DNA from: Naegleria gruberi
Lineage: Eukaryota
Strand: one strand, 5' to 3'
Length of the DNA stretch: 64,000 nt
NCBI GenBank assembly: GCA_000004985.1
Contig: GG738915.1
Of the stretch, positions 51,423-57,404 are shown in pieces (positions within the stretch are counted from its first letter, which is position 1; every line of letters begins with the position of its first letter). Below the pieces are notes generated by a model, which saw nothing but the letters and a program-made list of their open reading frames with translations, did no database searches and was not told the origin of the DNA. The position numbers and the translations under genes were made by a program.

Positions 51423-53988
51423 TTAGAAATAGGCAAAGAAGAATGATATCACAATAATCAGATAGACTACTAACAAGCTGAAACCATGGAAATAATTGGA
51501 TTTACCATCAATGGTAACATAATTAAGAATGATTACAGCAAAGAAAATAGCTACCAAGTCCAATCTTGGGAATGTAAGAGAAAATACCTTTGTAATGTCT
51601 TCTTGGAAAATAATAGTACTGAAAATAACAAGAGCTGGAATTTGGATTAAAGCTGTTTGAATACCAGCAACATTACCAATTTCCAAAGATAATGTAACAT
51701 TATTTTGTAATGCAAACTATAAAATTTGTGGTGAGAATTACAACAGTATTGTTAAATTATACAAACCTTAATAGCACTGACAATTTCTGAAATATTTGGA
51801 ACGAGAGCGAAAATCGTAAGACCAGCAAACTCTAATGGAATACCCAGAGGTTCAAATGCTGGCTCTAGAGATTTTGTCATGGCTTCAGCGACAAAAGCAA
51901 ATGCTATTGTTGCAATGAGAAGAATGAGTACACAAACCCAACGAGGCCATTCAGCAGCACCGTGACCACCTGGAGTCTTTCCTGTACCATCATTATCTTC
52001 TTCATCAACCTTTGGAGCTCTGAGATAATACTTGTTGTGAGTCTTGAGTGAGAAAATCAAACCAACAAGATAGGCAAGTGGTAGAATTGCAGCTGTAGTT
52101 AAGGCTAATGGTTTTGCCTTATGTTGATAAATTGGATCTTTAGTAAAGTCCTTCTCTACATAGATGCAATTTTGACAGGCAAGATGGTATGGAACTGTTG
52201 TACCGTTTCCAGTATTATTTTGACCACCTGGGTAAGGGAGTGAAGCAGTGCCATTTGCAGTGTTATTGAAAAAGATAGCCAAATCTACACAACTGAGACA
52301 GGTTAATTCATAATCTGAATATATGTGTTAATAAAATGTTAAATTACTGGTCAACTTACTGCCATAAATTGTGTAGAATAATGAAGGAACAAAACAACCA
52401 ACGGTAGCGACAAGCAATAAAAGAGATGAGGTACCTGCAGCATGTTTGTTAAAATATTGAACTCTATGTTTGAAACCTCCAAATATCATACTAAGTCCAG
52501 GAATCAACAAAGTATCACCCAAAAATGATCCTGTAACGGCTTGCATGACAATCGCACTCATACCCTTGTAAAGAGTGGCAAAGTAAAGAATAATTTCAAC
52601 AACTGAACCGAAAGAAGCATTAAGGAAAGCACCCACAACATAGTTACTCTGTGCTGAAATAGAACTGACAGCCTTACTAATGTAATAACTCAATGGAATG
52701 ACAGCTAAAATACAAGTAACAAAAATTCCAACACCATATTCCTCAACAAATTCATCACTGAAAGCAAACCCTAAAACAATACTAAGTGGTACGAAAGGAA
52801 GCATGTTGAACAATAAAACATTAGCACCAAACAAGGAATACTTGTAATAGTAAAGATTGAAAGCTTGGTATGTACAGACCATGATATCACTTTCAACATT
52901 TGGTGGAAACTCGTCACTAACATGGAGCTCTAAAAAGCTCTTATATAAAAGCTTTAAACCATGGAACTGGACTTTGGTAGTGGGTATACCAAATACAGTA
53001 AGCCAAGAAAGTACACAGCATACGCAGTGCACAATAAATAAAATTGGAGCAGGGAAAATGCACCAAATCACCATACCAACAATTCTTAAAAACTTTTTAC
53101 CACCTGATTCTCTTGCATTCTCATCATAGTACACTTCTTCTGACTCATTTGGCATCAGTGAACTATTTTCAGAATTAACAGCATGGTTGTGAGGAACAAT
53201 TCGCTCAATATATTTACCAAATGGCCAGAAATAATAAAAAGCCATAGATAAACACTTATTTCCATATGGAATGCAAAATATTGTCAAATAACACAATAAG
53301 GCAACAAAGATATAACTCAAAAATAACCACCATCCCCAAAGTAATGAGTAAACAATATTTCCGAATGAAATCATTCTATTCTTTTCAGGTTTTTTCACTT
53401 GTTCTGGTTTAAGATCACCCACTTGTTCATACAAGGTTTTAACCTTTTCACTTCTTTCATTAATGTCTCTTACAGTTACGTGACCTATTCCGAGTGTCAC
53501 AAATAATAATGAATTTTTAACATACCTGCAAAAGGCATAATACCAAACATGGTATTCATAATGGATTTTTTAACTTCAATTTCATTTTCTCCATCAACAG
53601 TAATATCATCTTCGTTTTCATCTTGATCCTCAAATCTCAAAGAATATCTTTTTCTTCTCTTTAGTGAAGAAGATGAATTCAAAGCATGTTGAAAATCCTC
53701 ATGATATTCACTACTACTGTCCTTTCTATCAAATGATCGAATAATATCCCTCGATGAATCTCCATACGGCCCATAATCACCTTCCGATTCAATAGGTTCT
53801 TCCAAGGGTATATATCCCCGAGTGGTACTATTATTATTATTACTACTATTAACATCGCCTTGTTGTTGATATGAAGAGTGTTGTTGTTGTATGTGGTCAT
53901 CACCTCCATCACCACTAACAATATTCGGATGATTGCCTGCACCACTACTGTTACGTCGCCCTCCAGCACTCTCTTGATTTTGCCGCAT
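51423..53988 (-). CDS. CAX: CaCA-family Ca2+/H+ exchanger (CAX-like) with an N-terminal YccF/DUF307-like membrane segment and a long S/N/acidic cytosolic N-terminus. Exons complement(join(51423..51716,51767..52314,52360..53484,53526..53988)).
   Basis: Alpha-1 repeat 'GAFLNASFGSVVEIILYFATLYKG...VTGSFLGDTLLIPGLSMIFGG'. Alpha-2 repeat 'GLTIFALVPNISEIVSAIKFA'. Introns of 41, 45 and 50 nt (GTATGT, GTAAGT and GTTTGT donors) restore a continuous 809-aa frame. 'NIVYSLLWGWWLFLSYIFVALLCYLTIFCIPYG' is YccF-like. Confidence 0.75.
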
Positions 53989-54360
53989 TTTTTTTGATGA
54001 AGAAATTTGAAAATTCGTAAAGTATCTTCTTTGCTGATGATTCTTGTTCGCTCTTGTTGAATAATCATCAAATAGCAAGTGATAGGATGTGAATTGATGA
54101 ACACGAATTCAAGGTTGGTTTTGGATATGTTGAAGGTTAGAGGAAAATTGCATTTTGTATAGAAGGAGTACAATGTTAATACTCCGAGGGCAGGTAGATT
54201 TTTTGTGTCGAATCGTTTTGGGTATTGTAAGTTCTGTCAGGTAACTTTGCAAATATTTTGTCATACATTTATAATCTTAATGATCACAGTTGAGCTGTTT
54301 TACAATCTTGTTGTAAATTGTAAAGTTTTGGATTTATCAATTCAAATCAGACTGAAAAAA

Positions 54361-55528
54361 ATGGGACAATCACAACCATCGTATCCTGCCTCTACTCCAC
54401 CATGCAATTGTGATGATAAACACAACGTGAGAGAGAGTGTCATTAAAAAGATTGGAAATGTCAGAATGGTTCCGATTGATATTTTCCAAACATTGTTGGA
54501 ACAAGAGGAGAAGAATGATGAGAATTTAATTGATTTATTTAATGAGGAAAATTGTTCGATTTATGAGAAGGAATTACCTCATGAATTATTTATTCATATT
54601 TTAGGATATCTTACAGGGAGTGAAATTGTAAAACTGGGACGAACTTGTAAAAATTTTCAGTTTTATTGGATTAGAAATAGGACCTTGTGGAAAGGGATAT
54701 TGCAAAAGGAAGAACGTGATGATTTTGTTCCTTTCATGTATTTTAGACCAATTTTTGATTCATCAATGATTCAATCTATAATTTATTATCATACATATTT
54801 TATTCCACTTATTAGGAACTCATTCAAACGTAGTGATGAAAAGCAGATAAAAGCTTTTACCAAGACTGTACTGTTAGGACCTGAAGGAAGTGGAAAATCT
54901 GAAATTGTAGCAAGAATTGTCGGTAAAGACTTTGATCCTACTTATACTCCTACAATTGGTATGTTTTTTAATAATATTTTCAGACATTTATAAAGATTTA
55001 TTAGGTGTTGAGTTTGCAATGGTACCATATCAATTAAGCACTGGAATTAATGTTAAAATGCAGTACTGGGATGCTTCAGGCAAACCTACTTTCAACTCAC
55101 TTTCGAGAGCCTACACGAGAGGTGTACATGTAATCGGTTTCTGTTTTGATTTAAACAATGAAGAGTCATTTTCAGAAATGAAGAACAGAGTTGAGATTTA
55201 TAGAAATGAGAATTTTTCAAATTTAAAGTGGAATGCAAACCTGAAGGAGGAAAACGCTCACCTTTTAATTCTCGGAATGAAAAGAGATTTGGAGAGAAAG
55301 GTATCGATACAGCAAGTAAAAGAATACATTTCCGAACTAATTCAAGTAAAAAAGGAAGGAATATTACTGAAAGATTTGAGAATTCAATATTTTGAATTGA
55401 GTAACAAGACAGACACGATAGAAATGATAGAATTTCCGTTTATGTATGGTGTCCTCCAAGTAGAAGATAAGCTGGCAGTCGAAAGTCCACCACAACCTGT
55501 ACATGGTAATCTTCCTGCCAAGAAATAA
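54361..55528 (+). CDS. F-box domain fused to a divergent Ras-superfamily small GTPase. Exons join(54361..54958,55005..55528).
   Basis: F-box 'LPHELFIHILGYLTGSEIVKLGRTCKNFQ'. P-loop 'LLGPEGSGKSE'. Switch region 'PTIG|VEFAM' spans a 46-nt GTATGT...ttag intron. G3 'WDASG'. G4-like 'LGMKRD'. Confidence 0.65.
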
Positions 55529-55682: not shown

Positions 55683-57404
55683 ATGATAACACCAACAATA
55701 TTCAATAGTGATGTGCGGGGGATGGTTGATGATGAAGATGATTGTCAAATGGTGATTTCACCAATGGAAAGATATTCGGATCATTCATTAGTCAATTTAC
55801 CTTCCGAGATTATTCATTTAATTTGTCAATATTTGCAATCACATGATTTGTTTTATTCATTGTTTGCTTTGAGTAGACATTGGTATGAATCATTGGCAAT
55901 GTATCCAACAATATTTCTGAGAAGATGTAAAAATGCAGAAGGTGCCATACAAGTATTGAGAAATAGATTTAAAGACTTGAGATTTCTTAATTTGAGTGGT
56001 TTGCAATTGTATGACGAAAATGGTTGCAAAACTGATTCATCGAATACTATTCTTAAGGTTTTGAGAGATTCAATGAGAGAGGGATGTACTAAATTGAACT
56101 ATTTCAGAATGGCTAATTGCTTAACTAGTCCAAAACAGGTCAAAGTCGATGAACCACAAAAAACTGAGGAGTTAACGCTCGATGAATATGACATGGTTGG
56201 TGATGGTAATAATTGGATTGCAGAGCCAGCTGGCAATGGCTATGGTGAAGAAGTTATCATTGAAGTTTCTCCGAAATTTATAGAAACAGTTGTGTTTGAA
56301 ATGATGGGACAAATTAAGAAAATTCAAGTAGAAGATATTATTGACCCATACGATGCTAATTGTAATGCCCAACCAAAGGAAGTATCGTTCTACATTTCCA
56401 GATGTAAAAATATTAGCACTGAGGCATTTGAATCGTTGGGTCGTAACCCAAGATTTTGTTCTTCAGTTACCAAAATGATGCTTGAATGGGATGTTGGAGT
56501 CAATAGCCAATCTATTTGCGTAATGTCTCAATATTTTACAAATATTACAAGTTTGAGTATCGCCAATTGTGTTAATATCGATTCTGCTGGTTTTGAGGCA
56601 ATAAGCAAAATGACTGGAATACATACTCTAACCCTAGTTGGTACTACAATTAGGGACGCTGATTTATTAACAATCTCTAAACTTCCAAACCTTAAAAGTA
56701 TCGACTTGACAGGATGTAAGAATACTGTCCAATCTGAGGAAACCATTGTGCAATTCTTGACAAACTGTCCTCAAATGGAAGAGCTATTCCTTGTTGATTG
56801 CAACTTGACTGATTGGACCTTGCATATTATTAAGGAAAAGCTCAAGAATTTGAAATTCTTGGACATTTCTTGGAATGTAGATTTCACAGATGAAGGAATG
56901 TTTAATATTCTTGGAGAATTACCAAACCTCGAAAGCTTTAACATTACCACTGGTGCAAAAATTGAATTAGCCATTCTACTAAAGGATGATAACTCGTTAT
57001 TGGCCTCGAGTGAGGATGTTGGAAAGGACCTCTATACCCCTCTCTTACCAAAGCTCACCAAATTGAACTTGAGCATGAGAAACTATCAGTGTAATGAAAG
57101 TATACAAGCTGTTTTAAGAAATACTCCTAATTTAGTATCCCTCCAACTATCTGGTTGTTCTCGCCTTACAGACGATTCCTTCTCTAACATTAATCCAAAA
57201 ATTTATCCTCTTCGTAAATTGAAAGAAGTTCACTTGATGCGTTGCTCTTGGTTGACTGACGAAAGTCTCAACAAGCTCATGCCACTTTGCATTTCAAGCC
57301 TAGAAAATCTATTCCTCCAAAGATCCAAATTCTCTAAACAAAAAATCGATGAATGGAAATATAAACTCGAGAATATCAAGAAAATTGGTTATCCAAAAAG
57401 GTAA
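55683..57404 (+). CDS. F-box/LRR-repeat protein (FBXL/Skp2-like)
   Basis: F-box 'LVNLPSEIIHLICQYLQSHDLFYSLFALSRHWYESL'. Then 10 or more cysteine-containing LRRs ('CPQMEELFLVDCNLTD', 'LKFLDISWNVDFTDEGM', ...). Confidence 0.7.
   Translation: MITPTIFNSDVRGMVDDEDDCQMVISPMERYSDHSLVNLPSEIIHLICQYLQSHDLFYSLFALSRHWYESLAMYPTIFLRRCKNAEGAIQVLRNRFKDLRFLNLSGLQLYDENGCKTDSSNTILKVLRDSMREGCTKLNYFRMANCLTSPKQVKVDEPQKTEELTLDEYDMVGDGNNWIAEPAGNGYGEEVIIEVSPKFIETVVFEMMGQIKKIQVEDIIDPYDANCNAQPKEVSFYISRCKNISTEAFESLGRNPRFCSSVTKMMLEWDVGVNSQSICVMSQYFTNITSLSIANCVNIDSAGFEAISKMTGIHTLTLVGTTIRDADLLTISKLPNLKSIDLTGCKNTVQSEETIVQFLTNCPQMEELFLVDCNLTDWTLHIIKEKLKNLKFLDISWNVDFTDEGMFNILGELPNLESFNITTGAKIELAILLKDDNSLLASSEDVGKDLYTPLLPKLTKLNLSMRNYQCNESIQAVLRNTPNLVSLQLSGCSRLTDDSFSNINPKIYPLRKLKEVHLMRCSWLTDESLNKLMPLCISSLENLFLQRSKFSKQKIDEWKYKLENIKKIGYPKR

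Follow-up and report, generated by a model that had tools for sequence, protein, structure and literature searches.

An F-box–Rab-like protein of Naegleria gruberi: corrected gene model, heterolobosean family and a possible role as SCF substrate receptor

The window, i.e., the 64,000-nt stretch of Naegleria gruberi DNA analyzed here (contig GG738915.1), carries a gene for a 373-aa protein in which an F-box is followed by a Rab-like G domain (Table 1). The coding sequence runs from an ATG at 54361 to a TAA at 55526..55528 and contains one short intron. An in-frame ATG located 80 nt 5' of this start, at about 54281, would add 27 residues; it was considered and rejected in view of the MGQSQPSYP N-terminus found conserved in paralogues, and because paralogues keep this N-terminus 54361 is taken as the true start. 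The protein ends in HGNLPAKK, and the tail that follows the G domain is 23 residues long.

The intron begins with GTATGT (GTATGTTTTT), ends with TTATTAG and has a length that leaves a remainder of one when divided by three. If it is left unspliced, the reading frame (ORF 54205..54993) meets a TAA after 11 codons. Splicing creates the junction YTPTIG/VEFAM, which aligns without gaps to the switch-I strand of Sec4 (ITTIGIDFKI); Rab1 was also aligned. The published gene models of XP_002670446.1 use the same splice. An earlier reading of the DNA, made from the sequence alone, had proposed that removal of these 46 nt restores a Rab-like TIGVEF strand, and this holds in every respect: the GT..AG borders, the stop codon on read-through, the gapless Sec4 alignment and the agreement with the published corrected model.

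Table 1. Position of the F-box–Rab-like gene and its features in the window
Feature	Position	Strand	Remarks
Whole gene, CDS with one intron, 373-aa F-box–Rab-like protein	54361..55528	+	N. gruberi XP_002670446.1, model corrected
Exon 1, 598 nt: N-terminal region, F-box, linker and start of G domain including P-loop	54361..54958	+	Continuous ORF
N-terminus MGQSQPS, Gly2 a possible N-myristoylation site	54361..54381	+	MG start in 20/25 family members
F-box, aa 71-114, LPHELFIHILGYL...CKNFQFYW...LW	54571..54702	+	Pfam PF12937
In-frame stretch, 156 nt, with GT..AG ends, removed as intron by the JGI/RefSeq model; taken as coding (aa 101-152)	54660..54815	+	Conserved in paralogues; restored in published correction
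Family-specific linker / N-terminal extension of G domain, aa 115-165	54703..54855	+	
Rab-like G domain, aa 166-350, interval including intron	54856..55456	+	
G1 / P-loop GPEGSGKS, aa 173-180	54877..54900	+	G173 and K179 invariant; G178 in 24/25 family members
Intron, 46 nt, GT..AG, phase 1, splits codon Gly200 in switch I	54959..55004	+	Stop on read-through; splice restores TIGVEF
Exon 2, 524 nt including TAA stop: remaining G domain and C-terminal tail, no Cys	55005..55528	+	
G3 DASG (WDASG aa 221-225, D222 starts 55070), then Lys226 replacing catalytic Gln	55070..55084	+	Alignment to Sec4 WDTAGQE
G4 MKRD, aa 291-294, NKxD with Asn to Met	55277..55288	+	
G5 SNK (SAK equivalent) inside family signature QYFELSxK	55400..55408	+	

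The closest protein match is an N. gruberi 'rab family small GTPase' (P0001, XP_002670446.1 / EFC37702.1), which is identical to the spliced protein except that aa 101-152 are absent. These residues are encoded by the 156-nt stretch listed in Table 1, which is taken to be coding because its residues are conserved in paralogues. Judged by this conservation the RefSeq model is wrong, i.e., 52 residues short, and the sole correction is found in the supplement of Herman et al. (2021; BMC Biol 19:142, PMC8296547). There, Table S8 lists XP_002670446.1, marked with an asterisk, as 'Rab' and 'F-box' together with a manually corrected sequence, which equals the spliced model presented here residue for residue. 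It is near certain that the locus holds the single N. gruberi gene XP_002670446.1 and that this gene belongs to the heterolobosean F-box–Rab-like expansion catalogued by Herman et al. (2021). The gene, its corrected exon model and the ubiquitination hypothesis are thus already in print. What is added here are members from Willaertia and Naegleria lovaniensis, the replacement of catalytic Gln and NKxD Asn across the family, and the conservation of Gly2, the latter two not being spelled out in the available portions of the text of Herman et al. (2021).

The F-box is detected by the Pfam F-box-like profile PF12937 (aa 71-114) with an E-value of 3.4e-7 and 30.4 bits vs. a curated cut-off of 24.3; PF00646 gives 19.6 bits on the 373-aa protein, slightly below its cut-off of 20.5. 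A canonical F-box at the N-terminus had been claimed before. The domain itself stands, being above the PF12937 cut-off, but it does not lie at the extreme N-terminus, as 70 residues precede it, two of them Cys. The distance from F-box to G domain had been put at about 70 residues and is shorter than that, measuring about 52 residues to the first strand of the G domain and 58 to the P-loop. The core residues of the F-box are kept in the family (L72 in 20/25 members, P73 in 21/25, E75 in 21/25, W103 in 23/25, and W110 in 19/25). It is predicted that the F-box has retained its binding function, because the LPxE...W...W residues stay conserved at a mean column identity of just 23%. The linker that follows is also subject to conservation, M126-x-F-x-P130 and NSF153-155 being invariant in five N. 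gruberi paralogues.

An AlphaFold2 model built from a 25-sequence alignment folds the protein into one compact body (mean pLDDT 85.2, pTM 0.83) with residues 27-358 ordered. The F-box is modeled as short helices (67-115) at a pLDDT of about 90. The linker is ordered as well, with strands at 128-131 and 155-157 and a helix at 136-153 (pLDDT 86-93), and a standard G domain comes next.

The earlier assignment of the C-terminal half to the Ras superfamily, made from a GPEGSGKS P-loop and a WDASG motif, is confirmed: both motifs are found where they had been placed, and the Pfam Ras family matches aa 168-336 with an E-value of 5.3e-22. The F-box and Ras matches are far beyond chance, the two Pfam families being matched by 23 and 24, respectively, of 25 family members. 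Within the superfamily Rab is the best match by sequence and by fold. All of the 60 best PDB sequence matches are Rab, Ypt, or Sec4 proteins, for the single sequence and for the family profile alike, and the top PDB matches are Sec4, Rab1, and Rab8. The protein keeps the P-loop, the switch-I threonine T198, the DxxG motif, the Lys and Asp of NKxD, and SxK. The degenerate NKxD motif that had been pointed out earlier (MKRD) is indeed present, and its Asn is replaced throughout the family. A change that had been overlooked affects the catalytic Gln, whose place is taken by Lys226 (codon 55082..55084). A C-terminal Cys prenylation motif of the CC, CxC, or CaaX type is absent from the 373-aa protein. 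Relatives with more than 25% full-length identity included no conserved eukaryotic Rab subfamily; all of them are F-box–Rab-like proteins from Heterolobosea or environmental contigs. On these features the protein is best described as Rab-like and as no true Rab: Rab is its best match, yet the protein lacks a prenylation site as well as the catalytic Gln and the Asn of NKxD.

The family was surveyed with HMMER, a profile made from the window protein and its nearest paralogue being run exhaustively against 1.84 billion representative proteins. There were 14 representatives with E ≤ 1e-30, and in about 23 the match extends over F-box, linker, and G domain. Their sources are N. gruberi, with at least 10 paralogues that are all listed in Table S8, as well as N. 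lovaniensis, Willaertia magna, and environmental contigs. The fusion thus recurs in related genomes, and since both N. lovaniensis and Willaertia magna have members the family must be older than the split between Naegleria and Willaertia. Divergence within the family is considerable, the closest relative of the window protein found in the HMMER search being at most 43% identical. Several HMMER matches of 365-750 aa with multiple matching stretches were considered as further F-box fusions and proved to be tandem Rab domains.

Conservation was counted by column in an alignment of 25 heterolobosean-type members. Pfam recognizes a Ras domain in 24 of the 25 and an F-box in 23 (PF00646 in 23/25, PF12937 in 22/25). 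The columns that form the nucleotide site are well kept: G173 and K179 occur in 25/25, Ser or Thr at position 180 in 23/25, the switch-I Thr in 21/25, the Asp and the Gly of DxxG in 21/25 each, the NKxD Lys in 22/25, Asp or Glu at the last position of NKxD in 24/25, and the Ser of SxK in 21/25. The catalytic Gln is retained in a single member, the remainder having D, N, S, E, K, H, G, I, or a gap, and the NKxD Asn is retained in none (L, M, T, or F in 24 aligned members, a gap in one). As far as the alignment tells, the degenerate NKxD is a trait of the family, and the loss of the Gln is the more informative of the two changes. The sequences NSF, FCFDL, LG[LM]K[RS]D, and QYFELSxK are signatures common to the members.

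The ends of the proteins follow a similar pattern. Twenty of the 25 start with Met-Gly and 13 fit a PROSITE-type N-myristoylation pattern, while a Cys within the last five residues is found in three, never in the CaaX form. The N-terminus of the window protein, MGQSQPS, misses the pattern by virtue of the Pro at position 6, and its closest relatives (MGQSQP...) miss it too. The longer stretch MGQSQPSYP is common to the window protein and a paralogue with which it has 43% overall identity. Three long proteins of 765-954 aa (P0048, P0074, and P0119) start with MGQ; their N-terminal half is of low complexity and rich in Ser, Thr, and Asn, an F-box sits in the middle, and the Rab-like domain is at the C-terminus. 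Since they carry the FCFDL, G[LM]KSD, and YFELSS signatures, they probably form another subgroup of this heterolobosean family, with longer proteins.

The N. gruberi part of this family has been described before. Three expanded clades of F-box–Rab-like genes, divergent and specific to Naegleria, were reported in Supplementary Material 4 of Herman et al. (2021), with no discernible close relatives outside Naegleria and with a conserved N-terminal extension that is recognizable as an F-box in at least some members. The clades evolve by birth and death, and some members are disrupted. The same study found the F-box to be the commonest extra domain on Ras-superfamily GTPases of Naegleria (Rab, Rho, Ran, and Galpha), and reported that some Arf and Ras GTPases of these genomes are fused to BTB, a Cul3 adaptor. 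The sequence-only reading had called an F-box/GTPase chimera unusual, which is correct across eukaryotes but not within Naegleria, where these three clades exist (Herman et al., 2021). GTPase-dependent ubiquitination was proposed as a role, together with the statement that no specific functional prediction was possible (Herman et al., 2021).

Fusions that join a small GTPase to a cullin-ligase adaptor couple nucleotide switching to protein degradation, and the studied animal examples are Rab40-SOCS and RhoBTB. Rab40 keeps the canonical GTPase motifs and C-terminal prenylation. Like the window protein it joins a Rab-type G domain to an adaptor of a cullin-RING ligase, with the GTPase recruiting the targets of ubiquitination (PMC8129794, PMC10509765), and it is the best functional analogue; ubiquitination of EPLIN by Rab40b-Cul5 provides a precedent for a GTPase as substrate adaptor of a cullin ligase (PMC8129794). 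The arrangement differs in that Rab40 has a SOCS box (ElonginB/C-Cul5) C-terminal to the G domain, whereas the window protein has an F-box (Skp1-Cul1) N-terminal to it. This distinction, already drawn in the sequence-only reading, is upheld by a Pfam search at E-values up to 1, which gave no match to a SOCS box in the 373-aa protein. Similarly, RhoBTB combines an atypical GTPase with a cullin adaptor module and is also present in Naegleria (Herman et al., 2021), but its GTPase is of the Rho type, its adaptor is BTB, and its cullin is Cul3; the window protein gave no BTB match. By analogy, the window protein is inferred to work like Rab40 and RhoBTB while belonging to neither.

A further architectural parallel is found in the Euglenozoa, the sister lineage of Heterolobosea within Discoba. 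Compared by its description, the euglenozoan FRP (TbFRP, PMC3593210) resembles the window protein in having an F-box N-terminal to a Rab-related/Ras-like G domain, no CaaX motif, and an N-terminal membrane-binding element, and differs from it in having an N-terminal FYVE domain. No FYVE domain was matched by Pfam in the window protein, and none was found among the examined proteins from the best 150 HMMER matches. No FRP was recognized among the best 150 HMMER matches, and the authors of the FRP study found no N. gruberi orthologue (PMC3593210). Three further proteins, all from outside Heterolobosea, combine an F-box with Rab domains, and in all three the linker is short. One, from the transcriptome of the malawimonad Gefionella okellyi (P0056), has an N-terminal F-box and a canonical Rab that keeps the catalytic Gln, NKSD, and SAF. 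In a second (P0051), from a Paratrimastix-like organism, one F-box is followed by three Rab-like units, perhaps through the merging of a tandem array. The named protein closest to it is the third, from Paratrimastix pyriformis (P0156), in which a Rab-like G domain follows an F-box-like match of 21.7 bits that stays below threshold.

What the window protein does has to be considered against this background. F-boxes bind Skp1 and thereby recruit Cul1-Rbx1. The F-box of the window protein would accordingly dock on Skp1, and hence on the Cul1-Rbx1 core, and make the protein a substrate receptor of an SCF ligase. In such a receptor the usual WD40, LRR, or Kelch module would be replaced by the Rab-like G domain with its family-specific linker. 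The G domain is expected to bind Mg-guanine nucleotide through the P-loop, the switch-I Thr, DxxG, the Lys and Asp of NKxD, and SxK. When the residue equivalent to Ras Q61 or Rab Q67 is replaced, by Lys among others, intrinsic hydrolysis drops strongly; the Asp of NKxD sets guanine specificity, and changes of its Asn lower affinity and speed up exchange. As neither the catalytic Gln (here Lys226) nor the Asn of NKxD is left, poor GTP hydrolysis and perhaps quick nucleotide exchange are expected, so that a GTP-like state would prevail. The switch surfaces may then bind effector-like partners and offer these for ubiquitination, by the same logic as Rab40-SOCS-Cul5. With no prenylation site present, any attachment to membranes would have to occur via myristoylation of Gly2. 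In short, the protein is proposed to be a mostly GTP-loaded SCF substrate receptor, possibly tethered to membranes via Gly2, in which the Rab-like switch surface is the recognition module. This proposal, which agrees with the hypothesis put forward for Naegleria by Herman et al. (2021), is in our opinion about evenly poised between being right and being wrong. The functional ideas put forward in the sequence-only reading, i.e., targeting that depends on nucleotide state and a non-hydrolysing GTPase, are reasonable and would fit the Gln-to-Lys change.

Some observations may count against a receptor of this kind. TBC-type RabGAPs supply a Gln in trans, and loss of the Gln in cis need not abolish GAP-stimulated hydrolysis. 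The Pro at position 6 does not fit the myristoylation pattern. Finally, individual paralogues may be dispensable because the clades evolve by birth and death and include disrupted members (Herman et al., 2021).

Other roles for the F-box are conceivable. It could be a turnover handle: once bound to the SCF, the protein would itself be ubiquitinated and quickly degraded, and would be a short-lived signaling GTPase rather than a receptor for other substrates. F-box proteins are commonly autoubiquitinated within the SCF, which counts for such a handle. The same role has been proposed for the F-box of trypanosome FRP, a protein that undergoes rapid proteolysis and is difficult to overexpress (PMC3593210). 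We nevertheless regard this explanation as doubtful: it leaves unaccounted for the joint conservation of effector-type surfaces, linker, and F-box in about 25 diverged paralogues, and a turnover handle and a substrate receptor are not mutually exclusive. The F-box may also bind Skp1 outside the SCF, as yeast Rcy1-Skp1 does in endosome-Golgi recycling, and the protein would in that case regulate membrane traffic without ligase activity. Skp1–F-box complexes other than the SCF are known, and Rcy1 cooperates with the Rabs Ypt31/32; both this and the Rab-like nature of the G domain can be cited in support. Specific support is lacking in the data, however, and the BTB-Arf and BTB-Ras fusions of the same genomes point to cullin ligases as the common theme, so that a role outside the SCF appears improbable.

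It must also be considered that the gene has no function, or is losing it. The Gln-to-Lys and Asn-to-Met changes and the non-consensus N-terminus would then reflect relaxed constraint in a decaying paralogue. The disrupted members and birth-and-death dynamics of the clades (Herman et al., 2021) are in line with this, as are the lack of any relative above 43% identity in the search and the hypervariability of the catalytic position. On the other hand the ORF and splice sites are intact and the nucleotide-binding and F-box core residues are all kept. Moreover, Gln and Asn have been lost across the family and not as private lesions of this gene, and the MGQSQPSYP N-terminus also occurs in the 43%-identical paralogue, all of which makes decay very improbable. 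The least credible alternative, to which we give next to no weight, is that F-box and GTPase are two genes or transcripts that were wrongly joined. Nothing was found in its favor, the sole disagreement between gene models concerning the in-frame stretch in the N-terminal half. The sequence-only reading had named separate mRNAs for an F-box exon and a GTPase exon as a refutation, but this splice cannot bring them about: the intron lies inside the G domain, and F-box and P-loop are both encoded in the one uninterrupted ORF of exon 1. In addition, no fewer than 23 independent representatives, which come from four named species and environmental contigs, have the same architecture.

If the substrate receptor reading is correct, and the family members are true SCF receptors, they would represent a third, independently evolved wiring of small GTPases to cullin ligases, and one that is unusually large and fast-evolving; dozens of F-box versions are predicted from sequence in Naegleria. 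It is tempting to speculate that the F-box–Rab(-like) combination is an old module of several 'excavate' lineages, i.e., Heterolobosea including Willaertia, Euglenozoa with FRP, Gefionella, and Preaxostyla. Within Heterolobosea this module would have given rise, by diversification, to a large set of N-myristoylated SCF receptors that are locked in the GTP state, lacking Gln as well as Asn, and whose fast-evolving switch surfaces recognize changing targets, for instance at the interface between organism and environment. Taken as a whole this scenario is unlikely. Apart from such considerations, the value of the present analysis lies in biology that is still uncharacterized and in small additions to the family beyond those of Herman et al. 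(2021).

The genes on either side of the F-box–Rab-like gene are of different kinds. Downstream, at a distance of 155 nt and on the same strand (55683..57404), a 573-aa protein is encoded that gives a weak F-box-like match at aa 37-69 (16.3 bits, below cut-off) and an LRR_4 match with an E-value of 2e-11; from these matches it looks like an FBXL-type receptor. It was considered as a tandem duplicate of the F-box–Rab-like gene and rejected, the two F-box regions having no detectable similarity. The upstream neighbor is divergently oriented (52328..54078, minus strand) and has matches to YccF (E 2e-17) and Na_Ca_ex (E 1e-11) in ORF 52328..53500. A low-complexity ORF (53497..54078) adjoins the latter and may be its N-terminal exon.
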